This document shows, piece by piece, positions 11,971 through 55,373 of a DNA stretch of 64,000 nt. How positions within the stretch are numbered: position 1 is the stretch's first letter; each line of letters begins with the position of its first letter. The stretch is taken from positions 45,611-109,610 of the forward strand of contig CADBLE010000006.1 in assembly GCA_902795435.1 (NCBI GenBank), read 5' to 3'. The notes under the pieces are model-generated. The model did not search any database, was not told where the DNA came from, and was given only the letters and a program-made list of their open reading frames with translations. This DNA is from an uncultured Pseudomonadota bacterium. Its GTDB lineage: Bacteria; Pseudomonadota; Alphaproteobacteria; Rs-D84. A program made the translations under genes and the position numbers.

Positions 11971-12046
11971 TCGGGCATAGTTCAGTCGGTAGAACAACGG
12001 ACTGTTAATCCGTATGTCACTGGTTCGAGTCCAGTTGCCCGAGCCA
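11971..12046 (+). tRNA. tRNA-Asn (anticodon GTT), CCA encoded
   Basis: Acceptor TCGGGCA/TGCCCGA. Anticodon stem-loop CGGA-CTGTTAA-TCCG. T-arm ACTGG-TTCGAGT-CCAGT, then G + CCA. Confidence 0.92.
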
Positions 12047-12116
12047 CAGATTACAAGGCTTTCAAGACTTTTTGTTTTGAGGCCTTTTTTCTTAAATCCT
12101 ACTAAAATCCAACTAA
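12041..12116 (+). repeat. Left island junction (attL-like): tRNA-Asn 3-prime end plus 60-bp direct repeat
   Basis: 12057-12116 (GGCTTTCAAGACTTTTTGTTTTGAGGCCTTTTTTCTTAAATCCTACTAAAATCCAACTAA) matches 33678-33737 at 58/60 by eye. GAGCCA(C)AGATT also recurs at 33663. Weaker similarity continues for about 30 bp further (ATTAATTTCTGTTAATTATGGTTAAT versus ATTAATTCTGGTTAAATCTGGTTAAT). Confidence 0.85.
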
Positions 12117-12361
12117 ATATATTAATTTCTGTTAATTATGGTTAATATCAAATATGTTAGTATTCTGTTATTTTTATGATTTTATTCCCAAACAAATCCC
12201 GATAAAGACACTCTTATATTTGCTATATTGATTATTTGGAATCAAAATTTATCAAGAATATGATTATAGAGATATAAGGATATAAAATAAATAATATATA
12301 GATTGATTTTTACGGTAAAATTCGCTACATTCTCAGCAGAACAAACATATAGGTAAAAATT

Positions 12362-13606
12362 TTGACAGCCGAAGTTATAACTTATAATAAAAATGCAATC
12401 GCTATGGCAGCAGATAGTGCTGTAACCGTGTATGGTAGCAAAACCTATAATTCTGCAAACAAATTATTCATGTTATCTAAATATCACCCTGTAGGAATTC
12501 TGATTTATAATTCTGCATCTATAAATGGTATATATACGGAGATTTTAGTAAAGGAATACCGTAAACAACTAGGAAAAAAATCTTTTGATTCACTCAAAGA
12601 ATATAAAGATAATTTTATATTGTTTTTACGAGATTTTTTACAAACCCACATTAGTGACGAAGATAAAAAATTTAGTATAATAATCCAATTAAATAATCTT
12701 TTCGATTATGTATTTAATCGCTCCGATTTTCCCCAAATTAATCCAGGAGAAAATTTCTTTAATGTCGCAAATAAATTTCTAGAAGGACTAACAACAACTA
12801 TAAAACAAACGTATAATATTGAAAAAGAACTTGATTTGTCTGGAATTGATTTAGCACAAGAAATAAAAAATATCTTTTTGTATCGCATGAAATTACCAGA
12901 CTCTGAAGAATTGAATGGGTTGGTTAGTAAACTAATTGATATTTTTGCTTATTATATCAACATCCCATACAACCCTAATATTACAGGTATAGCTATTTGT
13001 GGTTACGGAGAAAAAGAATTTGCCCCAAAAATATATAATTTTGAAACATTGGGTTTTATAAATAACACTTTTAAAGTTAAAGACATTGGGGATAATGAAA
13101 GCCAAGATCAAGGGGTTATACCCCTTGCACAACGAGATATGACAGATTTGTTCATACAGGGTGTAGATTATAGGGTTTATAGTTTTATTACAGAACAATA
13201 CGAAGCTTTTATTGAAGGTATTGCTGATAAAATAAAAAAAGCAGATGTAGATTTATCCAGATATATAGGAGCTAATAAATATGTGATTTCAAAAAGAATC
13301 AATGAAGTACTTAACAAAGAAAAAGTTAAACCTTTATTGGATGTTATAGGTATTTTATCAAAAGATGAACTTGCAGAACTATCAGAAAGTTTGGTAAATT
13401 TGCAGGCGTTAAAACACAAAATGTCATTGAATCTTGAAACTGTTGGCGGACCTGTCGATGTAGCAATAATTTCAAAACACGATGGTTTTATTTGGAAAAA
13501 AAGAAAACTATATTTTGACAAAGAGCTGAACCCTCATTTTTTTGAAAATTACTTTTCTGAAGAATCTATTTGTGGTATACTAAAAAACAAAGAAGGAGGA
13601 AAATGA
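12362..13606 (+). CDS. Proteasome beta-subunit-like Ntn hydrolase with large insertions (414 aa)
   Basis: TTG start with AGGT 9-12 nt upstream. After Met removal the N-terminus TAEVITYNKNAIAMAADSAVTVYGSKTYNSANKLF places Thr1, Asp17 and Lys33 exactly as in 20S beta subunits (compare [35 protein letters not shown]). The C-terminal GGPVDVAIISKHDGF matches SGGMIDVAVITRKDGY, and ICGYGEKEFAPKIYNFE matches LLVGGIDTAPHVFSID. Confidence 0.7.
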   Translation: MTAEVITYNKNAIAMAADSAVTVYGSKTYNSANKLFMLSKYHPVGILIYNSASINGIYTEILVKEYRKQLGKKSFDSLKEYKDNFILFLRDFLQTHISDEDKKFSIIIQLNNLFDYVFNRSDFPQINPGENFFNVANKFLEGLTTTIKQTYNIEKELDLSGIDLAQEIKNIFLYRMKLPDSEELNGLVSKLIDIFAYYINIPYNPNITGIAICGYGEKEFAPKIYNFETLGFINNTFKVKDIGDNESQDQGVIPLAQRDMTDLFIQGVDYRVYSFITEQYEAFIEGIADKIKKADVDLSRYIGANKYVISKRINEVLNKEKVKPLLDVIGILSKDELAELSESLVNLQALKHKMSLNLETVGGPVDVAIISKHDGFIWKKRKLYFDKELNPHFFENYFSEESICGILKNKEGGK

Positions 13607-13779
13607 TGAATTTGCTCTTACAACAAAAGTATTTTAATCAGGTTACCTCTGTTCCGCTTTTCAGCAAATATAAAAACCTTGGAAAAGATATAGCTGAAGA
13701 ATTTTATAAAAATGCAAAACACAAGACTTGTAAAATTAAAACACACCCTAAAAAGACTTATGTTAAAACAACAAAATAA
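13606..13779 (+). CDS. Small Lys-rich protein (about 57 aa), translationally coupled to the proteasome-like gene
   Basis: A strong SD (AAGGAGG, 13593-13599) lies inside the end of the upstream gene. ATG codons at 13603 and 13606 overlap or abut its TGA. The ORF is in frame with track ORF 13570..13779. Confidence 0.45.
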   Translation: MNLLLQQKYFNQVTSVPLFSKYKNLGKDIAEEFYKNAKHKTCKIKTHPKKTYVKTTK

Positions 13780-13972: not shown

Positions 13973-14206
13973 ATGATACAAATTACAGAAAATGCTGATC
14001 CGTTATTAAGTACAGCCGAAGCTGCCAGATATTTAGGAACTACTCCTGGTGTATTGGCAGTATACAGATGCAAAGGAACAAAAGAAGACCTTCCCTATTT
14101 TAAAAATGGGAAAAAGGTCTGTTATTTGAAAAGTACTTTGGATAAATACATAGCAAAACACATGGTTAACTTTACCACAGCAAGATGTGACAACTTTTTA
14201 TTCTAA
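13973..14206 (+). CDS. Excisionase/AlpA-type HTH DNA-binding protein
   Basis: LLSTAEAARYLGTTPGVLAVYRCKG...PYFKNGKKVCYLKSTLDKYI is the typical excisionase-family HTH pattern. SD AAAGGAG is upstream. Confidence 0.7.
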   Translation: MIQITENADPLLSTAEAARYLGTTPGVLAVYRCKGTKEDLPYFKNGKKVCYLKSTLDKYIAKHMVNFTTARCDNFLF

Positions 14207-14425: not shown

Positions 14426-15400
14426 TTGAAACCTACCACAAATATAAAATCATTAAGTAATGAAGAATTAGAAATATTAACATCTAAGTATGGTGAAGTA
14501 ATAAAAACAAAGTCTTTTTATACAGGGTGGGATAAGAAAAAATATCATTTATCTCTACAAGAGTTATTAAGAGTTTATGGTGGTGAATTTGATTATACAG
14601 ACAAAGGAAAATTCAGACAAAAAACATCTGAATACACAGATTATCCAGAAGATGTAATTTTAACAAGCTATCAACAAGAATGGTTTGATAATCTTAGTCA
14701 GTATAATCCCACGTATTTTATTACAATAAAATTACCGCACGCTAATAAAGAGGGATTAAAAAGAACTCGTAATCATGATTTAGCTAAGAAATTATATAGA
14801 CAGATTCTCAGAGAGTTTGAATATTATTTTGTAGGATCTAATAGATGGAAGAAACCTGGTTGTGCATTACCTTTTAAAGGTGTTATGGAGTGTTGTGAGA
14901 AAGGGTTTTATCATATACATTTATTTATTATTGATTGGGAACCCACATGGAGAGAGAGGTTTTTCGATAATATTGTAACACAATTAGATATGGCAGCATC
15001 TGCAGTTATAAAAAAACACAAATTTTATAAAACTGTATTTAAAATTCAAAGGGTTTATTATAAACCAGGATTATTGGCATATATGCTAAAAAATCTAAAA
15101 GAAACAACAGCAGAGCAAGAAAAAAGCTATATATTTGATTTAAAGACATGGTTTAATATTGATTGGGAACAGTATGTAAATAAAACACCAAAAATTAAAC
15201 AAATATATACTACTGGATTTGGAACACCTATTTATACTTCAGTCAAAGAGACAACTTTTAAGCTTTATGAGATAATATTCTCATGGTTATCTGTCTGGTT
15301 TGTTATAATGAAGCATCCAAATATTATAAAAGGAAAGGTTTTAGACAAAGCCAAGTGGATAACTTTAAAGATGATTCGATATACAATAATCAATAAATAA
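14426..15400 (+). CDS. Putative HUH-type replication initiator (Rep-like)
   Basis: TTG start preceded by AAGGAGG. GFYHIHLFII is a candidate HUH motif and GLLAYMLKNLKE a candidate catalytic Tyr motif. The assignment is tentative. Confidence 0.4.
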   Translation: MKPTTNIKSLSNEELEILTSKYGEVIKTKSFYTGWDKKKYHLSLQELLRVYGGEFDYTDKGKFRQKTSEYTDYPEDVILTSYQQEWFDNLSQYNPTYFITIKLPHANKEGLKRTRNHDLAKKLYRQILREFEYYFVGSNRWKKPGCALPFKGVMECCEKGFYHIHLFIIDWEPTWRERFFDNIVTQLDMAASAVIKKHKFYKTVFKIQRVYYKPGLLAYMLKNLKETTAEQEKSYIFDLKTWFNIDWEQYVNKTPKIKQIYTTGFGTPIYTSVKETTFKLYEIIFSWLSVWFVIMKHPNIIKGKVLDKAKWITLKMIRYTIINK

Positions 15401-15426: not shown

Positions 15427-15657
15427 CTAAAAAAAGTTTATGGGTTTACTGAATTCTTTATCTATCATGTCTTTGACATCGCTAGTTCTATAAAAGATAC
15501 GTCCACCCAGCTTTATATGAGGTAACAAAGGTCTAGTGTGTTTTTGTTTGGCTTTATAAATATCATGGTACAGGAAGCTTTTACTAAGATGTAACATATC
15601 TGCAAGTTCTGCCACTGTGATCAAAGGACATTCATAAAGCATCTTATTATTGATCAT
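15427..15657 (-). CDS. Excisionase/AlpA-type HTH DNA-binding protein
   Basis: LITVAELADMLHLSKSFLYHDIYK...LPHIKLGGRIFYRTSDVKDMI. An internal Met (MINNKMLYE...) is chosen as the start. The longer ORF to 15810 adds an implausible hydrophobic leader. Confidence 0.6.
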   Translation of the reverse strand: MINNKMLYECPLITVAELADMLHLSKSFLYHDIYKAKQKHTRPLLPHIKLGGRIFYRTSDVKDMIDKEFSKPINFF

Positions 15658-15967
15658 AATATTCCTTGTGTTCTTATATATAAGAACCTCAAAAACATAT
15701 GGAAGTGCACTCATAAAAATTAATAAAAAACTGCTTATATACAGTATTTTTGTGGGAATCTGTGAGCTTAGTACCGAAAACATACCCCTTTTCTGAACAT
15801 GTATAAGCATAGCATATAATCACATTATATAGCAAATAGTTTGTTGTTTTATCTCCTGTTTCAACCACTAAAAAAATTTTTTCAGAAAATATTTTTACAA
15901 AACGAGTTCTATTTATATGTACAGATAACACGTACAAATAATAGTTACTAAACCTAAGGAGTACATT

Positions 15968-17920: not shown

Positions 17921-20431
17921 TTATATTCCTAAAAGATTATCTAATGTCTTGATTAATTTGGTCTTTTCTTGGCTACCGTCTGTTCTGAAACGTATAAGAG
18001 GTAGGTTATATATTGCAAATATATTGTCCTTCATCTTATCCCTTTTACCTTGTGTGGAGTTTTCTTGGTGATATCGTGTTCCATCTACCTCAATACCTAG
18101 AATTGGATTTTTGGTTATACGGTTAAAGATTATAAAATCACAATGAGCGAGGATGTTATTTGCGTACTCGTATTCTGATCCTTCTAACTTTGATAAATCC
18201 CTAAATATGTATTTCAAAGGGACATGTGTTGCTACATTCAGAGAATTGAAACGACTGATAGCTAAAACTTCTTTTATTAAATCATACATAAGATTTTCAC
18301 TATCAAATTCTGAAACTTTAGACTTAATAAGTGATTTTCTTTTTGATTCATAACATTTATACAAACAATCAAAAATTGAGCAAACTTCACTTTTGACTAT
18401 TGTTAAATTGTTATAGTTTATGTAATCTATTAAGGATTTTACGTTTGTATCTTTTTCTTCTTCATTACCATTGGTAACGATTATCAATTGGTCTATAGCA
18501 CGAGATACTGCAACATTTAATCTATTAGGTTGGTCGGCAAAATCAGATATGCTATTATCAACCATAGATAACACGATAATATCTTTTTCTCTGCCCTGAA
18601 ACTTGTCGACTGTATCTGCTTGGATAGATGTGTCTTTAAACATTTTTTGTAATGCAGTTACCTGATTTCTGTAAGGTGTAACTATGCCGATTGAATCTTT
18701 ATTTACATCTAGTTTCTGTTGAGGAATGACTTCATCAATAATTACATCTATTTGTCTATTATTAACATGGTTTCTAGCATGGTTACCAGGTTTGGTTTTA
18801 TAAACGACCAAAGGTATCCTATCTGATTTTGGTTTACTTAATGTTATAAGTTGACCGTTATAAAATTTCTGGTTACAAAACTCAATAATTTTTGGATGAC
18901 ATCTATAATGTTCTCGTAATAACACAGAAGGAATATCAGGAATTAATTCCGTTATAGCAGATAAAATGCTGTGATTTTTATATCTATATGTCTCTGGAAG
19001 CGTGTATTGTTTGAATATGTTGTCCGTAGTCTTTGCAGATTGATCATCCACAACATTTGGTAATTGCTTTAAATCGCCAACTATAACTGCATTGCTTGCA
19101 CATCCCAAAGCCAATGCACCAGTAACTAAGTCTACCTGTGATGATTCATCTATAATTACATAATCATACAACCCATCAAAGATACAATTAGATAAAGAAT
19201 ATGCTGTACTCAGAATAACAGGGTATTCTTTAAGAAATTGCTTTGAACGAATTGATAGGTTTGCACGTTTGCTATCACGATACTTATGAGCCAATTTATG
19301 TTTAAATAACATCATGGATAGTTCAGAATATCTGGCAATTTTAGCATTAAAATCAAACTTTGATAGATGAGCTTCGGCTTTCTTTATGCTGGATTCTAAA
19401 TCTTTTGTGTGTTCATTATACCAATTTTTTTGACACATTAATATTATTTGATCTGGTGTATCCAAATAAAAAGAAAAATCATGAATTCTGTATTTGAAAT
19501 AGTTTATTATTTTGCGTAACAGATTTATTGTCTTATTGTTACCAGAATATTGTTCTGTTTCCAGCCATAAACTCATGCTTTTATCAGCATTTAAATGGTG
19601 TATTTTATCTGTGTTAATATTCGGGTGTTCAATACAGAAATGTTTGTATTCTATTTCTAGAACATCCAATTCTTGTTTGTTTTTTGCTAGATTGTTTTGT
19701 ATTTCTAACATATCCAGCAATTCGTTGTACAGATTATTTAAATCTTTTCTGGTTGTAATTTTCCATCTAAAATCTTTTTCCCATGTGGACATATCTGGCA
19801 AATCGTGTTTAGCTTCATTGAAAGCCGAGACGTTACTACTATTACCTAAGAAAGCCACCATAAAATCCAGGTTATACTTTTGTAATTTCTCAACAATATT
19901 AGCCGTAGCTGAATTATTGGCAGACGTAACAGCTACTGTCTGATCAGACATAATTATATTGGCAATAATATTCAATATAGTTTGTGTTTTACCTGTTCCC
20001 GGTGGACCTTCTATTACAGACAATCGATTAGACATAGCATTATCTGTTGCTTGTCTTTGGCTAAGATTGAATCCAAAAGGATAAATTGGGGTTTGGTTAG
20101 GCTCATGTTTCATATGTTTTATTTCCCCAGATAAAACATTAAACAATATAGATTCTTCGGATAAATTTTCGACTTTAGAAAAGTTATTCAATAAAATATT
20201 ACGATTATGTTCGTCTTTCAGTCCCACAACTTCAGCTACGGTTTTGAAATAATTCAGGATGTTATTAATTTCTTGATTTTTCTCTTCTATTCTCACATTT
20301 TGTCTGTTATAGGTATAAGAACGACCGTTTTTATACATAACATTTATCTTGGTGCCGTCTAATTCAACATCCAAAATATCATTGGTTACATCTTGATCTT
20401 TTATGAAAATCTTGAATTTTTCTAAATCCAT
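17921..20431 (-). CDS. SF1 (Upf1/DNA2-like) helicase fused to a C-terminal Vsr/DUF559-like endonuclease domain
   Basis: VIEGPPGTGKTQT (Walker A), YVIIDESSQV (Walker B), LREHYRCHPKI, VDKFQGREKDIIVLS, NRLNVAVSRA. The C-terminus HCDFIIFNRITKNPILGIEVDGTRYH is typical of the Vsr-like/DUF559 nuclease fold. Confidence 0.8.
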   Translation of the reverse strand: MDLEKFKIFIKDQDVTNDILDVELDGTKINVMYKNGRSYTYNRQNVRIEEKNQEINNILNYFKTVAEVVGLKDEHNRNILLNNFSKVENLSEESILFNVLSGEIKHMKHEPNQTPIYPFGFNLSQRQATDNAMSNRLSVIEGPPGTGKTQTILNIIANIIMSDQTVAVTSANNSATANIVEKLQKYNLDFMVAFLGNSSNVSAFNEAKHDLPDMSTWEKDFRWKITTRKDLNNLYNELLDMLEIQNNLAKNKQELDVLEIEYKHFCIEHPNINTDKIHHLNADKSMSLWLETEQYSGNNKTINLLRKIINYFKYRIHDFSFYLDTPDQIILMCQKNWYNEHTKDLESSIKKAEAHLSKFDFNAKIARYSELSMMLFKHKLAHKYRDSKRANLSIRSKQFLKEYPVILSTAYSLSNCIFDGLYDYVIIDESSQVDLVTGALALGCASNAVIVGDLKQLPNVVDDQSAKTTDNIFKQYTLPETYRYKNHSILSAITELIPDIPSVLLREHYRCHPKIIEFCNQKFYNGQLITLSKPKSDRIPLVVYKTKPGNHARNHVNNRQIDVIIDEVIPQQKLDVNKDSIGIVTPYRNQVTALQKMFKDTSIQADTVDKFQGREKDIIVLSMVDNSISDFADQPNRLNVAVSRAIDQLIIVTNGNEEEKDTNVKSLIDYINYNNLTIVKSEVCSIFDCLYKCYESKRKSLIKSKVSEFDSENLMYDLIKEVLAISRFNSLNVATHVPLKYIFRDLSKLEGSEYEYANNILAHCDFIIFNRITKNPILGIEVDGTRYHQENSTQGKRDKMKDNIFAIYNLPLIRFRTDGSQEKTKLIKTLDNLLGI

Positions 20432-20445
20432 ACTTTTATATGTCT

Positions 20446-23232
20446 TTAATTCAATAATTTTTGAATTTCAGTTGTAACTTCAGATGCTCTGGTGACTTTT
20501 TTCCATTTTACGTTTTCTATTTTATCAAATAACTTTTCTTGTGCGTTCAAAGCAATAATGTCGGTATCTCTGAGATTATCGGATTTTGTTTCAACAAATA
20601 AAGTTAATTTTATATTATTACCATTTGTAACCGCGTAAACAAAATCAGGCGAAGTTGTCCCGCCAACATATGTCGGGATTTTTATACACTTTCTTGGTAA
20701 TTTACCGAAAACATTGACTTTATTGTCCGGAGTTAATTTTAACACTTCTCGTTCTATTGAAGTATCGTACACCTTCTTGTCATAAAGATAATTAGGTTCC
20801 ACCATCAAATCTGTAGCTTCGTGTGTTCCAACTAAACCTTGTGTTATTTCATCTACAAAATTGCCATCTTTAATAAGAGTTGTATTGGCTGAAAAATCTA
20901 AAGATTGGTAATTAAACTTCTGCATAAATGTAGACAAGAATTTTTCATGAAACCTTTTTAATACATTATCTAAACTGCCCTCGTTGATTCTGTCCGGGAC
21001 CATACCACAACCATACAATTCACACATTGCTTTATGCCATGTGTTTACGGGTATCAATGTTCGTTCGGATAATCTACGCATAAACTTACCATAACTCAAT
21101 CTGATTAATGGTGTACTAATGTGTTTTGTTGTAGCTTTTGAAACAATTTTTCCGTCTTGTGACTCTAAACTGTAAGTTGTAATTTGACCTTCTGAAGGGG
21201 TAAAAGATTCAAGTAAAGCATGCTTTAAAATGCTATTTAAATCTTCATCGGATATTTTGTCGTACACAACCATGTATCTTTTTGTAACTTCTTGCCAGAC
21301 ATCTTTCAATTTTTCCCAGTTTTCTTTTCTTAGTTTTACGACAGGCTTTTTCTCTGAGTTAACAGTCACAACACCTTTTCTTAGCGAATAATTATCTGGT
21401 AATAGTTTTATCAAACCATCAACGTCTACTATATCATCAGATGCATTTATGACACCAGCAAACAACAAACCACCTTTAGCTCTATCAACACTGTCTGCAT
21501 ATCCATTTGCTACCAAAGCTTCCAAAATATTAATATTAATCTTCATATTTTGTACTATGCCACCATCACTATTAATTTCATTAATAAGTTTATCTGCAAA
21601 ATCTTTTTCGGACCAATCTATCAAGAAATCTAATCTAAATTCTTGTGTTGATATACGTTTGTGATTTTCGTCCACAGGCAAACGCAAACCACGTCCTACT
21701 TCTTGAATTTTACTGCTTTCGCTACCACTGGTTCTTAATTTAGCAATAGTGAATACATTTGTATTATCCCACCCTTCACGTAAAGTCCATTTAGAGAACA
21801 AGAAGCGTCGTAAAACCCAATTCCCTTTTTCGTCTTTAAATGAAGTTAATTTATCTCTATTCCTTAAAATATCGTTTACTTCTGCTTGTATCCCGTCATC
21901 TTTTGCTGTTGCTCTGTCTTCTGCAAAATAACCACCATGTGTTTCCGCTATATTTGCTAAACTTTGTTCCAGGAAATCTTTATATTCTTGGTTCTTTTCT
22001 AAACCTATTAATTCCCTTAACTTGGCTCTTAAAAGACGTTCGAATGTTTGTTTTAGCCAACCATCTTCATTTCTGTATGACGCTATATTATCAATAAAGA
22101 ATAAGGTTAAGGTCTTTATTTTTGCAGGATTCATCCCACAATTTTCCCTAAACCAATTTTCACGTTCCTTTTTAAAATGGGATTCTATGGCTTGTTTAAT
22201 CAATAATTCTTGATAACTTGATGAAAATAGTGACGGAATTAAAATCATACCATCTGATAATTCCAAACCAGTAGATAACATTTTATTACCATCAAAGGTG
22301 ATTCCGCCTTCAAATTCGCTCGGCAAAGCATCACCTATGGCCATCTCATATCTATTACCAGATTCGGTTAATGTTAAACTTCTATTTGTTACTGATGTTA
22401 CCCTATATTTGCGTGCCGCTTGAGCTTGATTTATTTCTGGAAAAATGACGTTTATCCCTTTTACCAACCCATTATTAAAAGCATTAACAGCATTCAAATC
22501 ATATACAAGGTCTTCAAAATCATCTTTTTCGACCTTATTCCTTCCTGATCCAACTGTAATTTTTGGAAAAGTTGCACCAAATCTTACAATTAATTGCGGT
22601 TCTAATCCTTGAATTGCCTGCCAAGCCTTTGTTGTTTTAGCAAATCTGTGTGGTTCATCAATAATAACGACAGGTTTTACAGCCTTAATTGAATCAATCG
22701 GGCAAGAATAAGAATTAATCAAAGTTTGATCGTAATCATCACGTGTCATTGATTTGCTGATTAACATATCATCGTTAAGCAACAAGCATTTTATGGTCTT
22801 AGAATCATTTCTGGTTCCTTCTAAAAAATCCATCAAAGCAGCAGGGATTGTTTTTCGTCCCTTCTTTGTATTAAAATCACCAGCATTAATCATATCCAAA
22901 TCGATATGAATATTTTCATATAATCCAGAAAAATGTTGTTTTGTATCTTTGTGTGTGATAAAAGCTTTTGTGCCTTCTTTAATAGCCAAAGATGGAACAA
23001 AAATTATAAATTTGTTTAACCCGTATTGTTTAAACATCTCGTACATCATACGTGTATAAACATATGTTTTACCAGTAGCAGTTTCCATTTTTACATCAAT
23101 ATTCTGTTGAATATTAATGTTATGATTTGCATATGGATTATCGTTGTCTTGAACATTATCACGACAACCATTCATAGCATCCATAATGGCTTTTATCGCG
23201 TCTGATTGATGGGGCAGTTGTTCCAGATACAT
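20446..23232 (-). CDS. res: Type III restriction enzyme, Res subunit
   Basis: METATGKTYVY (motif I) and VIIDEPHRF (DEPH box). C-terminal PD-ExK-like motif TSPDFVYAV...LFVETKSD. Lies immediately downstream of mod (2-nt gap). Confidence 0.85.
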   Translation of the reverse strand: MYLEQLPHQSDAIKAIMDAMNGCRDNVQDNDNPYANHNINIQQNIDVKMETATGKTYVYTRMMYEMFKQYGLNKFIIFVPSLAIKEGTKAFITHKDTKQHFSGLYENIHIDLDMINAGDFNTKKGRKTIPAALMDFLEGTRNDSKTIKCLLLNDDMLISKSMTRDDYDQTLINSYSCPIDSIKAVKPVVIIDEPHRFAKTTKAWQAIQGLEPQLIVRFGATFPKITVGSGRNKVEKDDFEDLVYDLNAVNAFNNGLVKGINVIFPEINQAQAARKYRVTSVTNRSLTLTESGNRYEMAIGDALPSEFEGGITFDGNKMLSTGLELSDGMILIPSLFSSSYQELLIKQAIESHFKKERENWFRENCGMNPAKIKTLTLFFIDNIASYRNEDGWLKQTFERLLRAKLRELIGLEKNQEYKDFLEQSLANIAETHGGYFAEDRATAKDDGIQAEVNDILRNRDKLTSFKDEKGNWVLRRFLFSKWTLREGWDNTNVFTIAKLRTSGSESSKIQEVGRGLRLPVDENHKRISTQEFRLDFLIDWSEKDFADKLINEINSDGGIVQNMKININILEALVANGYADSVDRAKGGLLFAGVINASDDIVDVDGLIKLLPDNYSLRKGVVTVNSEKKPVVKLRKENWEKLKDVWQEVTKRYMVVYDKISDEDLNSILKHALLESFTPSEGQITTYSLESQDGKIVSKATTKHISTPLIRLSYGKFMRRLSERTLIPVNTWHKAMCELYGCGMVPDRINEGSLDNVLKRFHEKFLSTFMQKFNYQSLDFSANTTLIKDGNFVDEITQGLVGTHEATDLMVEPNYLYDKKVYDTSIEREVLKLTPDNKVNVFGKLPRKCIKIPTYVGGTTSPDFVYAVTNGNNIKLTLFVETKSDNLRDTDIIALNAQEKLFDKIENVKWKKVTRASEVTTEIQKLLN

Positions 23233-23234
23233 GA

Positions 23235-25070
23235 TTAAAATCTCTCTATAATTTCAACGTTTCCTTCTAAAACCGACTTCATGTTGTTTTTTAATTCCGT
23301 TAAAGTTTTAAAATCAAACGAATGGTTGTAAACAATTATTGTTTGTACACTTAATTCGTTACGCCCAATCAAATTTAACAATTCACGAGTATTATCGGTT
23401 GTCCATCCCACAGATATCAAATATAAACGGTGTGAATCTTTTGGTAAATAGGCAGTGTAATCACCAAATTTGATTTCTTGTATTGGCGTGGTCAAAGTAT
23501 ACCCATCATCAACCATCCATGTGGTTAATATTGTTTCTATCCCAGAAGCCATTAATTTGGTTCCTAAATCTTTACCAGAGAAAGGTTTAATCATATCATC
23601 CGCTAATAAATTAGGTTTAGTTGGATCAAACGTATCGATTTTATCTAAAACCAAATTATCAGATATTTTTGCCAATTTATAATGTTTAAATCCAGATTTA
23701 TCACCGATTTTATCAGCAGCCAGTTTTATACGATCACGGGATATTTCATCAATCGTTTTATATCCAGCTTTTTCTGCTTCACTGCCACTTGCAACAGGTT
23801 CATCCAATTGCACCATTATATACTTACGATTACCTTTATCTTCAGAATTCAATTGCATAACCGCATGTGCAGTTGTTGACGAACCTGCGAAAAAATCTAA
23901 AATTAGAGAATTTTTATCTGATGCTAAATTTAATATGACTTCCAACAAAGAAACAGGTTTTGGAAAATCAAACACATCATCAAGGGACAAATCTCTTAAA
24001 TTATCTGTTCCCAAATTATTCACATATTTAGAACTCATCAAATCATTTGTTGTCAATATCAGATTAGGATCCTTATCAACTAATATATTAGTTCCAACTT
24101 GAAATTCTTTATTTATATAGTTTCTAACTCTTAACGTCGAAGCCGTTTCTACTACTATACCTAATTCTATGGCCTTCTGCATTCTGTCCTTTGTCCAAAG
24201 CCAACGTCTTCTATTGCCTTTAGAATCAACAGGCTTATAAATTTTTCCATTAAACTCTATATCATAATCCCCACCTGCTGAATATCCTTGAGTTGAACTA
24301 GCTAAAATTGGGCTTGTATCACCCTCCAAATATGTACCTTTGTCATCATGCTTTAAATTTGTCAAATTTCTTTGTACAACATGATGAAAATCATATTGCT
24401 TGTGTTTCGTGTAAACAACAATATAATCGTTAGTTTTAGATATATATTTTTCCTGTGCGGGTCTTTGTGCTGAACTTAATCTAGGTACTAATGCGATAAA
24501 GTTATCTTCTCCGAATATTTCATCACATATTAGTTTTAAATTGGTTACTTCATTATCATCTATTGATATAAATATAGCCCCATCATCTGCTAACATCCTT
24601 TTTGCAAGAACAAGACGTGGCAACATAAAGGTCAGCCATGCTGAATGCGAACATTTGCCGTTAAGTGCACGCAACCGTGCAACATCTGAATCTGCCATAC
24701 CTAATTTTTCTTTTAATTGGGCATCTGTAAAATTAAATGTATCATTATAAACAAAACCATCCGACCCCGTATTGTATGGAGGGTCTATATAAATACATTT
24801 TATCTGTCTTTCATAAGCATTAACCAAATGTTTCAATGCATCTAAATTATCCCCTGTAATGAATATGTTTTGACTATCTTTATTTTCAGCCTTGTTATTC
24901 CATTCTTTATCAGGGACCAAAACAGTTTCCGTTGGTAGTGTAGATACAAATTTGGCGTAATCTTTACCAACAAAACGCAACTGATACCCATCACGAATTT
25001 CATCGCGATCAGGATTTGTAATTGTCGCATTTTCTATTTCTTCACGAATTGCTTTAAGTCCTTCAAACAT
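23235..25070 (-). CDS. mod: Type III DNA methyltransferase, Mod subunit (beta-class N6A/N4C)
   Basis: IYIDPPYNTG (motif IV) is N-terminal and LDFFAGSSTTAHAV (motif I) is C-terminal, with a variable region between them. This is the beta-class order typical of Type III Mod. Confidence 0.85.
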   Translation of the reverse strand: MFEGLKAIREEIENATITNPDRDEIRDGYQLRFVGKDYAKFVSTLPTETVLVPDKEWNNKAENKDSQNIFITGDNLDALKHLVNAYERQIKCIYIDPPYNTGSDGFVYNDTFNFTDAQLKEKLGMADSDVARLRALNGKCSHSAWLTFMLPRLVLAKRMLADDGAIFISIDDNEVTNLKLICDEIFGEDNFIALVPRLSSAQRPAQEKYISKTNDYIVVYTKHKQYDFHHVVQRNLTNLKHDDKGTYLEGDTSPILASSTQGYSAGGDYDIEFNGKIYKPVDSKGNRRRWLWTKDRMQKAIELGIVVETASTLRVRNYINKEFQVGTNILVDKDPNLILTTNDLMSSKYVNNLGTDNLRDLSLDDVFDFPKPVSLLEVILNLASDKNSLILDFFAGSSTTAHAVMQLNSEDKGNRKYIMVQLDEPVASGSEAEKAGYKTIDEISRDRIKLAADKIGDKSGFKHYKLAKISDNLVLDKIDTFDPTKPNLLADDMIKPFSGKDLGTKLMASGIETILTTWMVDDGYTLTTPIQEIKFGDYTAYLPKDSHRLYLISVGWTTDNTRELLNLIGRNELSVQTIIVYNHSFDFKTLTELKNNMKSVLEGNVEIIERF

Positions 25071-25638: not shown

Positions 25639-26382
25639 TTATTTTAATATTGTTTCCATGTTTGCTTCTGCTTTTAACAACACTTTAAACTCAACTCGTC
25701 TGGAAGCTTTCTGATTTTCAGAACCATCTGCATAGGTGATCAATTTTGAATAACTTAAGCCGTTGGCTGTTACATATTGTTTCATATATGCAAAATCAGG
25801 GTCCAAAGTTAAACAATACGACAATACATTTCTGGCACGGGCTTGAGACAAACCCATGTTGTATAAATAATTCTTTTGTTCGTTAGTATATTTACCAGCA
25901 ACAGCATAGGGACCTTCTTTCATAACACATTCTTCATTAGAATTAATCTTACATGGTCCGGAAGTATCTGTATGCCCTTCAATTCTAATTTCTTGAATTT
26001 GATCTTTATATGGCATAATCGTTTTTATATATCTTGGAAAGAATTCTTTTAACTTAGCTTGGAATTCTTCTTTTAAAACCGCTTCATTTTTATCAAATTG
26101 TGGGGTTCTTTCATTAAACTTGAATGATAAATCTTTATTTATTTCTGCGTCCCACTTAGATAAATCTTTGCTAAATTCTTGTTGCAAATCTGTATATAAA
26201 TTCTCTTTCTTATCAAAATATTCTTTGGTTATACGTTCACAACGACCATGATCTGCATATTTTTTTTGAATATCAAGAATAACCGATACTGATATAAACA
26301 AGAAAACCAGCATTAAAGCAGTCATAATATCTGACAAGGATATATAATGCGAATTATCTTCTTTTGCATTTGAAAATGACAT
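25639..26382 (-). CDS. MotB/ZorB-like protein (TM anchor with conserved Asp plus OmpA-like peptidoglycan-binding domain)
   Basis: ISLSDIMTALMLVFLFI is a MotB-type plug/TM region with Asp. The C-terminus IRIEGHTDTSG...LSQARARNVLSYCL...RRVEFKV is OmpA_C-like. Confidence 0.8.
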   Translation of the reverse strand: MSFSNAKEDNSHYISLSDIMTALMLVFLFISVSVILDIQKKYADHGRCERITKEYFDKKENLYTDLQQEFSKDLSKWDAEINKDLSFKFNERTPQFDKNEAVLKEEFQAKLKEFFPRYIKTIMPYKDQIQEIRIEGHTDTSGPCKINSNEECVMKEGPYAVAGKYTNEQKNYLYNMGLSQARARNVLSYCLTLDPDFAYMKQYVTANGLSYSKLITYADGSENQKASRRVEFKVLLKAEANMETILK

Positions 26383-26398
26383 TTAATATACCCTTTTA

Positions 26399-27511
26399 TT
26401 ATTTGTTTTTCTTTTTATTGTCTTTAACTACTTCATCTATACGCTTTTTTAATTCATCTATGGAATCAGGCAATGTTTTAGAGGCGTTTTCAAGGGCTTC
26501 ATTAACAGAATCAAAATTATCAGTTAGTTTTTGCATTATACCAGCAGCATAATTGCCGGCTTCTACCATCTGCGTATTGTGTTCAACCGCAACTTTTTCA
26601 AAGAATCTATTAGTAGAGTTTTTATATTCTTCTGTCATAATATTGATCTTTTGTGTTGCATCATCAATCAACGTATTTACAGTTGCAATTGATTCTGGAA
26701 TTGTTTTCAAAGAATCAACAGCATTTATAGATTTTTCTCCCAAATCTTTTATGGCCTTTAATGGTTTGTCTAAAGATTCTATGTTTTCGGAAATAACTGT
26801 TAACATATTTGTTGTTTTATTGGCAACTTGATTCATTTTTTCCATTTGTTCATCATATTTTTCTTGCAATCCAGATAACAAACTAATTTGAGTCGACAAA
26901 TTATTTACAGATTCTGTAAAATTATCTATGCTTTCTGTAAATTTTGAGGAAATATCGTCTGTTAAATTATTTAAAGCTTCTGCTAAACCTTCTTGAAGTT
27001 GATTACCAAAACTTTTCCCTATTTTCTTTATAAAAACGTCAAAGTTGCCATTCATTTGTTCCAATTGATCATATTCACTTTTTTCTATAATTGTAGAAAT
27101 ACCAAGTTTTGATAACCCTGTACGTATCATTGAAAAACCAACACCAGCAATACTTGTTATAAAGGCCAATTTTAATCCATCTAAAAGATTTGGTAAACTG
27201 TTACCTATATCTGTTGTATCAAAACCTTTTAACCCCAAATAAATACCAATAAAAGTACCGAACATACCAATTGTAGGATACCAACTTTTGCTATAAGTAT
27301 GCTTTACACAATCGTAAATCAATAAACCTGTTAAAGCAGAAATAAAGATTATATTAATGATTGTCGAAACAAATCTGATATTATCTGTACTCGAACTAAG
27401 CACAATCACTGCAATTATTAAGATAACAGCCAAAGACAAAAACAATACGTTTTTAACAGACATCTTGCCTATCACTTGTTCTATATATGATTCCTGTTTC
27501 GTTTTCTTCAT
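26399..27511 (-). CDS. MotA/ExbB/ZorA-like proton-channel protein with helical tail
   Basis: Four predicted TM helices, including WYPTIGMFGTFIGIYLGL and LKLAFITSIAGVGFSMI (MotA_ExbB signature region). They are followed by about 240 aa of heptad-like repeats (TESIDNFTESVNNLSTQISLL...). Confidence 0.75.
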   Translation of the reverse strand: MKKTKQESYIEQVIGKMSVKNVLFLSLAVILIIAVIVLSSSTDNIRFVSTIINIIFISALTGLLIYDCVKHTYSKSWYPTIGMFGTFIGIYLGLKGFDTTDIGNSLPNLLDGLKLAFITSIAGVGFSMIRTGLSKLGISTIIEKSEYDQLEQMNGNFDVFIKKIGKSFGNQLQEGLAEALNNLTDDISSKFTESIDNFTESVNNLSTQISLLSGLQEKYDEQMEKMNQVANKTTNMLTVISENIESLDKPLKAIKDLGEKSINAVDSLKTIPESIATVNTLIDDATQKINIMTEEYKNSTNRFFEKVAVEHNTQMVEAGNYAAGIMQKLTDNFDSVNEALENASKTLPDSIDELKKRIDEVVKDNKKKNK

Positions 27512-27525
27512 TATATTAACCTTTA

Positions 27526-28143
27526 TTACATTTGCATTAACCTTGCATAAGTTTTGGTTTTGGTAAATTCAGGGAATGTTTTTGCAAAATTCTTAACTGA
27601 AACATCTACCTTTACACCCTTATCAAGCAATAAGTTTACTATATTTAACTTATTTAATTCAATAGCTATCATCAATGCAGTATAGCCAAATTTATCTTGC
27701 GAATTGATAGCTGCATGTGCATCTAGCAATATTTGTACAATTTCCACGTCACAATGCATACAAGCCAACATTAACGGGGTTGCCATAGAATAATCTTCCA
27801 GCTTTATGTTTATATTTGCCCCAGAATCAATCAAAGTTTTAATATTTTCTTTTTTATTTCCAGCTAAAGCTGCTATCAACGCAGTTCGTCCGCTATTATC
27901 TCGCGTAGAAACAGAGAGTCCTGCTTGTAATAACATTCTTAAACATTCTGGATCATCTATTGTATTAGCCGCTTTCATCAACGGAGTTTGACCTTCTTCA
28001 TCAACAATATTGACATCCGCACCAGCATCCAACAACTTTTTTAAATCAGTACTATTCTTAATAATACCTGCCTGCCAACCACTTATAAGTTTTTCTGTGG
28101 CTTGATCTGCTGTTAACGAATTTATACTATTCAATTCTGACAT
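27526..28143 (-). CDS. Ankyrin-repeat protein (about 5 repeats)
   Basis: Repeated G-x-TPLM/TALI-x-A...(D/N)V(N/S) units: GQTPLMKAA, GRTALIAALAGN, ATPLMLACMHCDVEIVQILLDAHAAINSQD, GYTALMIAIELNKLNIVNLLLDKGVKVD. The start codon abuts the SNF2 stop with a 0-nt gap. Confidence 0.85.
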   Translation of the reverse strand: MSELNSINSLTADQATEKLISGWQAGIIKNSTDLKKLLDAGADVNIVDEEGQTPLMKAANTIDDPECLRMLLQAGLSVSTRDNSGRTALIAALAGNKKENIKTLIDSGANINIKLEDYSMATPLMLACMHCDVEIVQILLDAHAAINSQDKFGYTALMIAIELNKLNIVNLLLDKGVKVDVSVKNFAKTFPEFTKTKTYARLMQM

Positions 28144-31843: not shown

Positions 31844-33190
31844 ATGGAAATTAAAAAGTCATTAAAATTAAGTAGCAAAACAAAAGTACAAGAATTACAA
31901 CCAGATCCAAACAAAAAGTACAGAGTACACGATAGCGACCAAAGCGAATTATGTATTCTTGTCTACCCTTCCGGTAAAAAGAGCTGGGAAATTTATAAAA
32001 AAATTAAGGGCACTAACAAAATCAAAGAAACTATTTTGGGGAACTTCCCGGATTTACTATATGAAAGAGCACGTGCAGAAGTACAGAAACAACTATTAGA
32101 AATGGCTTCAAACGCCCTTAATCCTAAAGCTAACTTATGTCCAAAATTGGACCCTAAAACCACTTTATCAGAATGGTTTTATAATGAATACATTCCTAAA
32201 TTTTGTTGTGATAGAGATCCCAAAACAAACAGCAAAGATGAAGGGATGTTTAGAATTTTATTAAATAGTTTACACGATAAACCTATCTTCTCTATTCAGA
32301 AAGCAGAATTAATGCAACTACATAAACAGATAAAAGATTCTAATCTAAGCCCACAAACAGCAAATCGGGCAATAGGTATATTAAAAGCAATGTTCAACAT
32401 ACTAATAAGGGAAGATTTGGCTCCAGATACATTCAGAAATCCTGCTATTGGTATAAAATATTACCCAGAAGAAGCAAGACACGTATTTATAACACCCGAA
32501 CATCTGCCATTTTTTATAGAAGAATTAGAAAACTGGCCAAATCCGGGATTCATAAATTTCGTCAAACTAAGTTTGTTTTCTGGTCTAAGGGAAAATGAAA
32601 TCTTACAATTAAAATGGTCAAATCTGAAAACAATAGACTTAACAACATCAACTGTGACCCCAAATGAGGTTGTACACATTGAACAACCCAAAGGGCATAA
32701 CAAAAGTGGTGCGAAAGATTTTGCCATATCGGCAGAATTCAAAAACGTATTGAAACAAATGAATTCTATAAACCATAACCCAGAAGATTATTTATTTCCT
32801 AGTCGAGAAGATACGACAAAACATGTAAAAAACTATACACACGTTTGGCATAGATTTTTAGACCGCCTGAAGGCCAGATTGAAACAAGAAGGGATTGAGT
32901 TTCACGATCCTATAGACGAAGAACCAGACACATATATACAATATAAAGTCAATGGTAAAATTGTTACAAGAAAAAAACGTAAAAATCATATGTACAGAAT
33001 CCATGACCTTAGACGTAGTGTCGGGGCTTATATGATCAAGGCCGGCAGATCTTGTGAGCAGATAGCCAAGGTATTAGGAAACACACCAGCTGTTGTACAG
33101 AAAACTTATTCCCCTATGCTTAAAGAAGACCAACAGGTTTATCTTGAATCTGGCATGGCTGAACTTACTGATGCAATGAAAATAAAATAA
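31844..33190 (+). CDS. int: Tyrosine recombinase / phage-type integrase
   Basis: SAM-like N-domain. Catalytic residues are in the expected order: GLRENEILQLKW (Arg), HDLRRSVGAYM (His-x-x-Arg), VVQKTYSPM (Tyr). SD AAAGGAG. Confidence 0.85.
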   Translation: MEIKKSLKLSSKTKVQELQPDPNKKYRVHDSDQSELCILVYPSGKKSWEIYKKIKGTNKIKETILGNFPDLLYERARAEVQKQLLEMASNALNPKANLCPKLDPKTTLSEWFYNEYIPKFCCDRDPKTNSKDEGMFRILLNSLHDKPIFSIQKAELMQLHKQIKDSNLSPQTANRAIGILKAMFNILIREDLAPDTFRNPAIGIKYYPEEARHVFITPEHLPFFIEELENWPNPGFINFVKLSLFSGLRENEILQLKWSNLKTIDLTTSTVTPNEVVHIEQPKGHNKSGAKDFAISAEFKNVLKQMNSINHNPEDYLFPSREDTTKHVKNYTHVWHRFLDRLKARLKQEGIEFHDPIDEEPDTYIQYKVNGKIVTRKKRKNHMYRIHDLRRSVGAYMIKAGRSCEQIAKVLGNTPAVVQKTYSPMLKEDQQVYLESGMAELTDAMKIK

Positions 33191-33662: not shown

Positions 33663-33737
33663 GAGCCAGATTTCCGGGGCTTTCAAGACTTTTTGTTTTG
33701 AGGCCTTTTTTCTTAAATCCTACCAGAATCCAACTAA
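33663..33737 (+). repeat. Right island junction (attR-like) direct repeat
   Basis: GAGCCAGATTTCCGG followed by the 60-bp repeat at 33678-33737 (see 12041-12116). CAGATTTCCGGGG also occurs at 33434-33446. Confidence 0.85.
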
Positions 33738-35870: not shown

Positions 35871-37196
35871 TTACATTTTTTCTTGTTTTTTCTTTATATC
35901 AAGAATTGTTTGAAACGTTCCTATCAAATCAGCTGTTTTCAAATCTTGTTGTAAATTTATTTGGGCTGTTGTTACATAGACATCTTTCTCTGTTGTATTT
36001 TTCTTTTTTGTATCCTCATCTACATTTAATTTATATCTATGTTTTTCCTGTACAGTTTCATCTGTTGCTGGGTATAGCAATATAGCTTTACCAGAATTAT
36101 GTAATTTACAATATGTAACTACCTGGAATATATCAGCATTGTCAAAATCACCGCGATCGCCTGACTTAAGTTTATATTTAGTATCAATAACTATTCCTGG
36201 TTTTTTCTTTTCTTTTTTAACAAACATATCAACAAATGTATTTGCATAATAATGTTGATTATCTGTGGATTCTAGTAATCTGCGTCCCTTTTGATACTGC
36301 ACATCATATATACCAATAGATTCACAATTTCGTTTTAAGAATTCAAATACAAATTCTTCAAATAAAAGATTCATATCCCAAATTAGTGCAATATTATCAA
36401 ACTGATGTTTTGACATATCCACAGAAGAATGTTCTAAAAACATCTTTGCCAAATTAAATGGCTGCGCAAAAACCTGCTGTGATCGATTTAATCGTATACG
36501 CTTTAAATCGTGTTTTGTAAAGTGTTTAAAAGATATATCAGAATATATGTTAATAATAAACTTTAATATTTTTTTATTGTGTGCATCTTGTGACACAGAT
36601 TGCAATCGTGTAGCAACATACAAAAACAATTGATTTAATTCTGTGTCTTCTGTGAAAGAATCAAATTCACAAAAGAACTTGGCTTTATTAGCTAAATTAT
36701 ACCTGATATTTTCAGCAATTTTTAATTTCCCTTTAAACGCAGACGTATTTTCTTCACAAATTTCATAATTTTTCGGGATAAAACGCTTAAGAGCATCAAA
36801 CAAACGATTTGCAAATACTCTGATTAGTGTTTCTATAAAAGGGTTTGGACACGATGTTATATTTGCAACTTCATTATCCTTGATATCCAGTTGTTTTGTA
36901 TAAGACAACATATATAACAAATTCTTTAAAATTTGTTCTCTTGAATCATTTTTACCCAGTAATTTTGGTAAAATTTCAAACTGAATATTCTTGTACTTTA
37001 TTACACCGACATAATGAGTTGGTTTAATATGAGCCCTATCAAAAGAAATTACATTATCCAAATTATTTCTTTCTAAAAAATGCTCTATATTTAATACAAA
37101 ATTATTATCATTCAAAAATTTTTCAGAGACAACAGTATCAGTTATCTCTGAAAAATTTAATTTTGTATGTTCAAAAAGTGGTATCGATACAAACAT
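35871..37196 (-). CDS. mcrC: McrC-like endonuclease subunit
   Basis: PD-(D/E)xK core GIVIDTKYKL...DIFQVVTYCKL near the C-terminus. Immediately downstream of the McrB-like GTPase (1-nt gap). Confidence 0.75.
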   Translation of the reverse strand: MFVSIPLFEHTKLNFSEITDTVVSEKFLNDNNFVLNIEHFLERNNLDNVISFDRAHIKPTHYVGVIKYKNIQFEILPKLLGKNDSREQILKNLLYMLSYTKQLDIKDNEVANITSCPNPFIETLIRVFANRLFDALKRFIPKNYEICEENTSAFKGKLKIAENIRYNLANKAKFFCEFDSFTEDTELNQLFLYVATRLQSVSQDAHNKKILKFIINIYSDISFKHFTKHDLKRIRLNRSQQVFAQPFNLAKMFLEHSSVDMSKHQFDNIALIWDMNLLFEEFVFEFLKRNCESIGIYDVQYQKGRRLLESTDNQHYYANTFVDMFVKKEKKKPGIVIDTKYKLKSGDRGDFDNADIFQVVTYCKLHNSGKAILLYPATDETVQEKHRYKLNVDEDTKKKNTTEKDVYVTTAQINLQQDLKTADLIGTFQTILDIKKKQEKM

Positions 37197-55200: not shown

Positions 55201-55373
55201 GTATGCGCAGTGTCCGTAAAACAACACCATCATTAAATGTAAAAATTGGAAACGCAGTATATTATGGCGACATGACATTGGTTCCAACAAATATAAATGC
55301 GAACACAACCAAAAAATTACGTGTAAAATATGGTAATGTTGAACAATATGTTCATGACACTACAATAGATTAA
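52293..55373 (+). CDS. Large secreted Cys-rich repeat protein, paralog 4, with Listeria-Bacteroides-type repeats
   Basis: GTG start after AGGGAG. Signal peptide. Six-Cys modules (CDAGSYLPAGATTCQTCDGTNNYCEGG..., CEAGEYLPATKTICEKC...). Two Flg_new-like repeats (CEKSGYDFGGWRDEFGNEYSAGDSFTWNYETDVRFTAIW; CEKTGNNFLGWVYNDDDLYEAGETFTYNYNSGITLVPLW). The C-terminus differs from paralogs 1-3. Confidence 0.8.
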   Translation: MKNIYNIILKTIGFSAFCLLFNTNSFAAYSDAECFGGTDGVPFPTANLTIVDSSSEVAYGSTVLNAETLLYNNPKQTSAVLHEDGIIKCTGTTNCTLKDYKSSGMDENAYTSELIQWIDGMSWSVNFQGKGTVSGYAFCGPSGWSTDKQIKTGKVGGTYSGCGCTITDFSDENTTVAQHTFVVNKYTQSSGDWQQKTNDCRSKCPALCANRIATDSAFRQILFQECPVFETGGGTGGEDTPTQIHCDAGSYLPAGATTCQTCDGTNNYCEGGDFYQDNTQNQGIAECPFGFEPNNSHSACSPLSIICEAGEYLPATKTICEKCKDNYYCEEDIFNYSTTENQGLKTCEFGYEPNSGHTACQLKSIHCGNGYYLPKNSLTCTACIGFEYCPENTYNFSASDEQGKNICGAGTVPNENHSACIEKTIVCPAGKYLPNNSHDEYDCQWCPDPYEAGDYYYCPGGEYDANYPSNNGMNLCPEYSYSEEESSYCTCNEGYTTDGKTANASNKTTTTTACVPEGSAVYNASYYCDTDTESLGSATISVGSLFTLISNIDFDNHVLCEKSGYDFGGWRDEFGNEYSAGDSFTWNYETDVRFTAIWNQKPVYTVSYSCGSDATGGYAPDSDDVVSGDQYTTRANTCEKTGNNFLGWVYNDDDLYEAGETFTYNYNSGITLVPLWEEITITCQPGFWATGNATTCDSECLQGYYCGGETYKFDGQTHGLTKCDSNLPSWASAHVYSEFGATSENDCRISVAMGVYADEDGLHQCEEMFYCPGFSGSVVEFNSALNNSGFVGLADCSDAPNYKDWGWTHGITSAQGSTSVNDCKIIIAPATYMDTEGVLHQCPADHFCPGHTYEYIDADTFFVDLVSLGAGIYECPVNATSDSGSTSCHCADGYMLNTDTGMCTAECGAGFYLPTNANACIEVGAGYYSPNGDSERYKCPDYLTTTGSGIGADEYSDCGRTLHIGNETLRMRSVRKTTPSLNVKIGNAVYYGDMTLVPTNINANTTKKLRVKYGNVEQYVHDTTID

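Follow-up and report, generated by a model that had tools for sequence, protein, structure and literature searches.

Bacterial proteasome homologues are usually regarded as housekeeping proteases. In 2021 a survey (Fuchs, Alva and Lupas, Bioinformatics 37:4694, PMC8665760) added 22 proteasome homologues to those already known and used the name PMI, for "Proteasome homolog with Multiple Insertions", for groups that are defined by their insertions; PMI-4, by far the largest PMI group, covers most bacterial phyla and the Euryarchaeota and is the sole PMI group flagged in phages, and the authors found no informative genomic context (PMC8665760). Here we describe a gene of this kind in a 64,000-nt stretch of contig CADBLE010000006.1 from an uncultured Pseudomonadota bacterium (hereafter, the window, meaning the whole stretch that was analysed), where a 414-aa protein with a predicted proteasome-beta fold, called the hydrolase below, is followed directly by a small open reading frame (ORF) coding for a Lys-rich protein. 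We infer, with a probability of roughly 0.55, that the two genes are best explained as a mobile hydrolase-plus-regulator cassette that would act in a toxin-antitoxin-like or abortive-infection-like manner. The features of the cassette are the following:

12351..12354, + strand: AGGT, a weak, putative Shine-Dalgarno-like sequence read from the sequence, 7 nt before the hydrolase TTG
12362..13606, + strand: hydrolase gene, 414 aa, predicted proteasome-beta-fold N-terminal-Thr hydrolase (PMI-type family, phrog_5990), TTG start with Thr as codon 2
13593..13599, + strand: strong Shine-Dalgarno sequence AAGGAGG for the small ORF, within the 3'-terminal part of the hydrolase gene, with a spacing of 3 nt to ATG 13603 and of 6 nt to ATG 13606
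13603..13779, + strand: small partner ORF, Lys-rich, 58 aa (57 from the second ATG), ATGA overlap with the hydrolase stop

Start Codon and N-Terminal Threonine

The N-terminus of the protein reads MTAEVITYNKNAIAMAADSAVTVYGSKTYNSANKLF, and without the initiator Met this yields Thr1, Asp17 and Lys33 (mature numbering). Among 80 loci with a homologue, drawn from different species of bacteria and archaea, homology sets in exactly at ATG/GTG/TTG-Thr in 79, the sole exception being a locus truncated by a contig end, and in several of the 80 a stop codon lies immediately 5' of the start. Profile position 1 equals residue 1 in most of the 150 best representative matches listed, and the identical protein is found on two independent public contigs, with gene calls that use the same start and include the same 58-aa downstream ORF. 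This comparative evidence leaves no doubt about the start of the hydrolase, the TTG directly before Thr; an internal ATG (Met14) was ruled out, since conservation across phyla includes residues 2-13 and the onset of homology lies at the start-Thr in 79 of the 80 loci.

The strict adjacency of start codon and Thr, together with the invariant Thr, Asp and Lys, argues for selection on the N-terminal nucleophile. As a propeptide is absent, only methionine aminopeptidase would be required for exposure of Thr1; this enzyme tolerates Thr in the second position, and its known specificity suggests that Met removal does expose Thr1 in the hydrolase. A scan for expression signals was uninformative in this AT-rich DNA, with 20 promoter-like sites against 16.6 expected, and found no terminator 3' of the small ORF.

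Predicted Fold and Active Site

In an alignment of 32 diverse relatives, T2, D18 and K34 (Met-numbered) are invariant, as are G45 and an ETVGGPxD motif. The D17-K33 spacing is exact only in the hydrolase's own subclade, with 1-7 extra residues elsewhere, although the Lys column is still invariant. An AlphaFold2 model built on this alignment had a mean predicted local distance difference test score (pLDDT) of 83 and a predicted TM-score (pTM) of 0.79, and a Foldseek search with it against the PDB returned 68 matches at E<=1e-3 (E from 3e-5), of which all 50 listed were 20S proteasome beta subunits (probability 1.00, target-normalised TM ~0.5-0.6). The best match among the viral models of BFVD was a phage protein annotated as proteasome beta. 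A family profile made from the 32 relatives had the Thermoplasma 20S beta subunit as its best sequence match in the PDB (E 0.017); the match is in register at the N-terminal segment as well as at the GGPxDVAxIxxxDG strand. Simpler searches gave less: a single-sequence phmmer search against the PDB yielded chance matches only, no precomputed Pfam domain was present in any of 120 listed homologues, and hhalign of the family profile against a single Escherichia coli HslV sequence gave no match.

We state with very high confidence that the hydrolase, with the alpha-beta-beta-alpha sandwich of its predicted structure, belongs to the proteasome family of N-terminal-nucleophile (Ntn) hydrolases with a Thr/Asp/Lys triad; the fold, as modelled, is secure. 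The initial annotation had proposed this fold, the exact triad positions behind a true N-terminal Thr, and a resemblance to an archaeal beta subunit. The positions hold for the hydrolase itself (and the spacing for its subclade only), the genetic evidence from the 79 loci bears out the N-terminal Thr, and the resemblance is matched by the profile hit to the Thermoplasma protein at both ends. Regarding the details of the active site, the invariant G45 may align to Gly42 rather than to the Gly47 oxyanion position, and IP(F/L)AQR stands where the GSG region sits in proteasome subunits. Acting through Thr1, the protein would be an active amide hydrolase or transferase.

Domain Architecture and Probable Assignment to PMI-4

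The double length of the protein had been attributed in the initial annotation to large insertions in its middle, and the AlphaFold2 model places them there as two sets of helices:

residues 4-50: core strands
residues 59-70: H1
residues 78-96: H2
residues ~99-198: first helical insertion, after H1/H2
residues 208-256: core strands
residues ~259-292: H3
residues ~296-331: second helical insertion, between H3/H4
residues 334-353: H4
residues 365-380: final strands

In the model the D17-K33 stretch is short and of low confidence. An insertion after H1/H2 combined with another between H3/H4 is the arrangement described for PMI-3 and PMI-4 (PMC8665760), with which the hydrolase also shares the Thr1/Asp17/Lys33 core, the lack of a propeptide, and an unknown function. 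PMI-4 further shares with the hydrolase family its occurrence in Proteobacteria, Firmicutes, Actinobacteria, Bacteroidetes, PVC, Cyanobacteria, Euryarchaeota and phages. Judged by architecture, distribution and size only, the hydrolase family is very probably PMI-4 (published representative HDY66466.1). The authors of the survey argue that neither rings nor double rings could be assembled without clashes if there are insertions at the post-H1/H2 and H3/H4 sites (PMC8665760); following this argument, the hydrolase probably does not form a proteasome-like barrel, and its description as self-compartmentalising in the initial annotation is doubtful, because the insertions would block the assembly of rings.

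A Small Partner Gene and the Two-Gene Cassette

The small ORF has two candidate start codons (ATG 13603 and ATG 13606), the hydrolase TGA occupies 13604-13606, and its product contains 13 Lys in 58 residues. The initial annotation had linked it to the hydrolase by the AAGGAGG and the overlap of the stop codon; its coordinates and description are correct, and the arrangement extends to the family, since a small ORF (35-110 aa, median 59) lies on the same strand at -30 to +120 nt from the hydrolase stop in 151 of 153 loci, in many of which it overlaps the stop codon. As a control, the same positional test was positive for 46% of 304 other genes in the same loci. Position alone is suggestive, and it is the sequences of the partners that settle the conservation. 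Nearly half of the unique partners (47/108) fall into one BLAST cluster, and a hidden Markov model (HMM) grown from one canonical partner recovered 50 ORFs; 16 of these came from the decoy set and proved by their coordinates to be partner ORFs with an alternative start codon, and the remaining ~4,900 decoy small ORFs of the same loci gave no match.

Canonical partners have a basic N-terminus followed by S-x-x-E-F-E-K-x-(Y/F)-F-P. About 20 variable residues, among which D-P-x-x-(L/F)-G is frequent, lead from there to L-A-x-E-x-L-x-x-I, and the C-terminal helix reads G-x-x-L-A-x-E-x-L. In other clades the position is taken by partners of another type, such as "KDFF...NFF" in prophages and "ISDIIxxKL" in Bacteroidota. 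In eight loci from Bacteroidota and relatives (L019, L024, L029, L044, L047, L051, L054, L064), the hydrolase begins with MTAV(I/V)GILNK instead of MTAE, Glu at Met-numbered position 4 being replaced by Val, and this subfamily has its own partner ending in ...ISDIIxEKL...; hydrolase and partner diverge together. The partner in the window, NLGKDIAEEFYKN, clusters with the partners of the two closest relatives, ENLGQEIAESFYRK and QDLGRRMAREFRAN, and is a probable divergent homologue of the canonical partner. A third conserved gene was not found when 641 flanking proteins were compared all-against-all (no cluster in more than 6 loci), and natural fusions of hydrolase and partner were absent among 262 retrieved homologues. 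We regard the unit, with high confidence, as a two-gene cassette.

Distribution and Genomic Contexts of the Family

The family comprises 6,408 representative clusters (50% identity) at E<=1e-3 and still 3,697 at 1e-30, and its hosts include Proteobacteria, Bacteroidota, Firmicutes, Actinobacteria, Nitrospirota, Planctomycetota, Cyanobacteria, methanogens, ANME and DPANN archaea. The initial annotation, which took the protein for an unusual stand-alone case, described one member of a very large family, phrog_5990 and very probably PMI-4. A scan with the exact motif confirmed at least 562 relatives in 185,579 species genomes (a lower bound), and the 80 fetched loci represent bacteria and archaea at ~30-38% identity. 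The closest homologues come from metagenome-assembled genomes labelled Alphaproteobacteria or proteobacterium. Among viruses and mobile elements, the full-length match to phrog_5990 in PHROGs, a group of unknown function, has an E of 4e-92, IMG/VR contains 248 contigs with a relative, INPHARED has 13 records with a match, 7 of them Streptococcus satellite phages, and 10 plasmids carry a relative. The distribution is sparse, patchy and without synteny, often on mobile elements and also singly among core genes, which by analogy resembles the pattern shown by toxin-antitoxin-like cassettes.

In one group of prophages (P0023; 41% identical, 282 contigs), the gene lies 11 nt 3' of an S24 CI-like repressor on the same strand, and a 59-aa ORF comes after it. 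Within three ORFs of the gene, the commonest neighbours in 36 non-redundant viral loci are repressors, other regulators, Q-like antiterminators, anti-repressors (Ant), holins and endolysins; in Providencia phage PSTRCR_117lys, for example, the pair is placed between Q/methylase and holin/lysozyme. The Streptococcus satellite phages have the gene near the end of the record in 7/7 cases, and in the satellite Javan421 it lies ~1.7 kb upstream of a RelBE pair. A homologue 60% identical to the hydrolase (L010) directly adjoins an integrase. The cassette moves horizontally, in accessory positions of prophages, in satellites, on plasmids and in integrative islands.

The Island in the Window

In the window the cassette is the first cargo inside the attL-like repeat of a 21.6-kb defence island next to a tRNA gene, in line with the tRNA-proximal position given to it in the initial annotation. 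The defence genes of the island are of type III restriction-modification (E 5e-271 and 6e-176), ZorA2/ZorB2-like, a DrmD-like SNF2 helicase and a Mokosh-like helicase with DUF2726. The features of the island and its borders are as follows:

11971..12046, + strand: tRNA-Asn(GTT), beside the island integration site (ARAGORN)
12057..12102, no strand: left copy of a perfect 46-bp direct repeat (attL-like; exact-repeat script), with the hydrolase as the first gene inside
13973-14206, + strand: HTH_17/AlpA-like gene
15427-15810, - strand: HTH_17/AlpA-like gene
17921-20431, - strand: Mokosh-like SF1 helicase fused to DUF2726, adjoining the type III genes
20446-23232, - strand: type III res
23235-25070, - strand: type III mod
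25639-26382, - strand: ZorB2-like OmpA protein
26399-27511, - strand: ZorA2-like MotA protein, short, 370 aa
27526-28143, - strand: ankyrin-repeat protein
28144-30897, - strand: DrmD-like SNF2 helicase
31844..33190, + strand: tyrosine integrase (Pfam Phage_integrase, Arm-DNA-bind_3, Int_N), at the island end distal to the hydrolase and tRNA
33678..33723, no strand: right copy of the perfect 46-bp direct repeat (attR-like), closing the 21.6-kb island
35871-37196, - strand: McrC-like gene of a McrBC-type pair, just beyond the right repeat
37198-39414, - strand: AAA_5 McrB-like gene of the same pair, just beyond the right repeat

The left repeat begins 10 bp past the tRNA-Asn, and the repeat extends to ~70 bp if mismatches are allowed. 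The neighbours of the hydrolase in the window include neither an alpha subunit nor HslU, nor any Anbu-type or ubiquitin-like gene, as the initial annotation had noted. A 324-aa ORF at 14426-15400, between the two AlpA-like genes, has no match in Pfam, PADLOC or PHROGs and could be a replication or regulation gene of the island. The Zorya-like block (25639-30897, - strand) is atypical, its combination of genes fitting no standard Zorya type. Because the McrBC-type pair adjoins the right repeat, the tRNA-Asn region may be a defence hotspot. Farther along the window, the ORFs at 52293-55373 (1026 aa) and 56635-59289 (884 aa) have no Pfam match at E<=1e-3, and MetK-like and FtsW-like genes near these long ORFs give weak family matches only. 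With a G+C content of 33%, the host seems to be a divergent organism.

Proposed Mechanism and Alternative Explanations

For a mobile cassette of hydrolase and regulator we propose the following sequence of events. Translation of the hydrolase begins at its TTG, and removal of fMet by methionine aminopeptidase would expose Thr1 without a propeptide, allowing Thr1, with Asp17 and Lys33, to attack an amide bond. The second gene, translationally coupled to the first, would supply a basic protein of 45-80 aa that docks on the hydrolase as an inhibitor, a pseudosubstrate or a substrate; the conserved linear motif suggests docking in the substrate cleft. A trigger such as infection or the loss of the labile partner would then free the Thr1 hydrolase and lead to the cleavage of a cellular or phage target. 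An exclusion or toxin-antitoxin mechanism of this sort is tentative, at somewhat short of even odds. The cassette does show toxin-antitoxin-like traits, being an autonomous conserved pair with a small second product in unrelated contexts. A stricter version, in which the cassette is a widespread, unrecognised anti-phage system (abortive infection or exclusion) whose Thr1 protease is checked by, or processes, a co-translated pseudosubstrate peptide, we consider doubtful.

A number of observations weigh against the reading of the cassette as a toxin-antitoxin-like or abortive-infection-like unit. On chromosomes (flanks of up to 3 ORFs in 80 diverse genomes) the neighbours are mainly metabolic or housekeeping genes, with only scattered matches to integrase, transposase, PIN, HTH, methylase, terminase and AbiEii-like proteins, and a family-wide defence-island signature is not demonstrated; the defence-island association put forward in the initial annotation stands for the window, and accessory-gene positions are common in phages. 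The defence models of PADLOC-DB 2.0.0 gave no match for either protein at E<=10, and nothing meaningful came from Pfam, NCBIfam or PADLOC for the hydrolase or the small protein. In the literature searched we found no relevant connection between proteasome-like or Ntn proteins and phage defence or toxin-antitoxin systems, and no experiment or paper that ties the hydrolase family to any phenotype. The partner in the window is unrecognised by the canonical partner HMM, and its profile match to the canonical G-x-x-(I/L)-A-x-E helix is weak (P 6.6e-4, probability 27%).

The same holds for the enzyme itself. PF00227 does not match the hydrolase even at E<=10, hhalign of the family profile against a single Thermoplasma beta sequence reached a probability of 55% over the C-terminal motif only, and the support residues Ser129, Asp166 and Ser169 are not obviously conserved, with ETVGG in place of DSASGG. 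Similarity to canonical beta subunits is marginal at the sequence level, and homology therefore rests largely on the predicted structure (from 32 sequences). Of the searches by which the initial annotation expected the proteasome fold to be recovered, the structural one with Foldseek brought back 20S beta subunits, and those with PF00227 and HslV found nothing.

The best-surviving alternative is a pure addiction or toxin-antitoxin module that stabilises its carrier elements and has no anti-phage role, with the hydrolase as toxin and a labile small inhibitor, or with a small toxin that is constantly degraded by the hydrolase. The autonomy of the cassette, its translational coupling, the rapid divergence of the partner, the insertion sites scattered among ordinary genes and the presence on plasmids, satellites and islands all fit this explanation; however, type II modules do not typically have the large gene first, nor do they typically lack a DNA-binding antitoxin, and a place next to repressors or between Q and lysis genes is more often that of a gene with a benefit for the lysogen. 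Since many toxin-antitoxin modules are also defence systems, it overlaps with the cassette reading that we prefer, and taken by itself it is rather unlikely.

Less likely again is a role in peptide processing or ligation, in which the small protein would be the dedicated substrate, cleaved or transferred by the Thr1 enzyme to give an active peptide or a modification. The conserved linear motif S..EFEK.FFP and the frequent DP..(F/L)G are what one would expect of the target of a sequence-specific enzyme, and connectase provides the precedent of a proteasome homologue acting as a specific ligase (PMC8665760). The hydrolase nevertheless lacks the hallmarks of connectase (H1/H2 are retained and the two-helix insertion at S3/S4 is missing), export, immunity and modification genes are not conserved nearby, and the partner in the window is without the FFP and DP motifs.

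That the hydrolase is simply a housekeeping or stress protease like HslV, Anbu or BPH, present on the island by chance, would agree with the metabolic surroundings of most chromosomal homologues and with the lack of informative context in the survey (PMC8665760), but is improbable in view of the sparse and patchy distribution (at least 562 relatives in 185,579 species genomes), the lack of synteny, the frequent occurrence in prophages, satellites and plasmids, and an ATPase partner that was not found. A catalytically dead scaffold keeping only the fold, to which the missing PF00227 match and the non-evident Ser129, Asp166 and Ser169 might point, has a negligible probability given the invariance of Thr, Asp, Lys and many residues around them in bacteria, archaea and phages alike, and given the strict retention of a start codon immediately before the Thr codon.

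The preferred reading, a mobile hydrolase-plus-regulator cassette, concerns a family that is among the largest of the proteasome-like groups and yet has no Pfam model, name or known function. The family was very probably already described computationally in 2021, when it was noted in phages, and has never been characterised; the hydrolase of the window is one more member, with nothing out of the ordinary for that family in the gene itself. What appears to be new in comparison with the survey (PMC8665760) is that the partner gene is conserved and that phages, satellites and islands carry the family systematically, and the partner, the lack of fixed neighbours and the recurrent mobile positions lead from an anonymous family to a testable hypothesis, that of a protease-based toxin-antitoxin or phage-exclusion module. 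If this is true, bacterial immunity would gain a new catalytic class and the "PMI" proteasome homologues their first function, and an anti-phage role would make the hydrolase the first prokaryotic immune effector on a proteasome fold. Should the enzyme prove sequence-specific, as with connectase, the linear motif of the partner could be useful.

Comparison with Known Systems

With the 20S beta subunit (PF00227; Thermoplasma acidophilum PsmB, PDB 1PMA), the hydrolase shares the predicted fold, the N-terminal Thr, Asp17, Lys33 and the C-terminal GGxxDVAxIxxxDG strand; it differs in being twice as long, with ~135 residues of helical insertions, in having no propeptide or autoprocessing, alpha subunit or unfoldase, and in that a ring is doubtful. 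HslV (ClpQ) is likewise a bacterial proteasome homologue in which, as in that of E. coli, mere removal of Met exposes Thr1, but it lacks the insertions and is a vertically inherited housekeeping gene, whereas the hydrolase has no HslU neighbour. Membership in HslVU was rejected, as there is no AAA+ unfoldase domain in the nearest neighbours and no conserved neighbour family-wide, and so was membership in Anbu, whose ATP-grasp, alpha-E and transglutaminase genes are absent from the window and from the conserved neighbourhoods. BPH was rejected along with HslV, Anbu and connectase on missing partners or a different architecture.

Connectase, a sequence-specific protein ligase of methanogens, is, like the hydrolase, a Thr1 enzyme with a proteasome fold that probably forms no barrel and may act on one partner via a linear motif. 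It lacks H1/H2 and has a two-helix S3/S4 insertion, whereas the hydrolase keeps H1/H2 and carries its insertions elsewhere; with H1/H2 present and no such S3/S4 insertion in the AlphaFold2 model, membership in connectase was rejected as well, and evidence for a ligase was not found. The D-P-x-x-(F/L)-G that often precedes the C-terminal helix of canonical partners (loci L011-L089) is similar to KDPGA, the motif at which connectase recognises and cleaves its substrates, which may be a coincidence.

As to gene arrangement, the lambda cI-rexA-rexB region shares with the P0023 prophages a two-gene, lysogen-expressed accessory cassette directly after a CI-like repressor on the same strand, although neither lambda rexAB nor protease-based abortive infection (Lit) has any relationship to the cassette in sequence or fold. 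Closest among the known systems are the PMI-3 and PMI-4 proteins, from which the present family differs by context: the survey reported none that was informative, whereas here a small ORF lies downstream and the genes occur in accessory-gene, satellite and island contexts.

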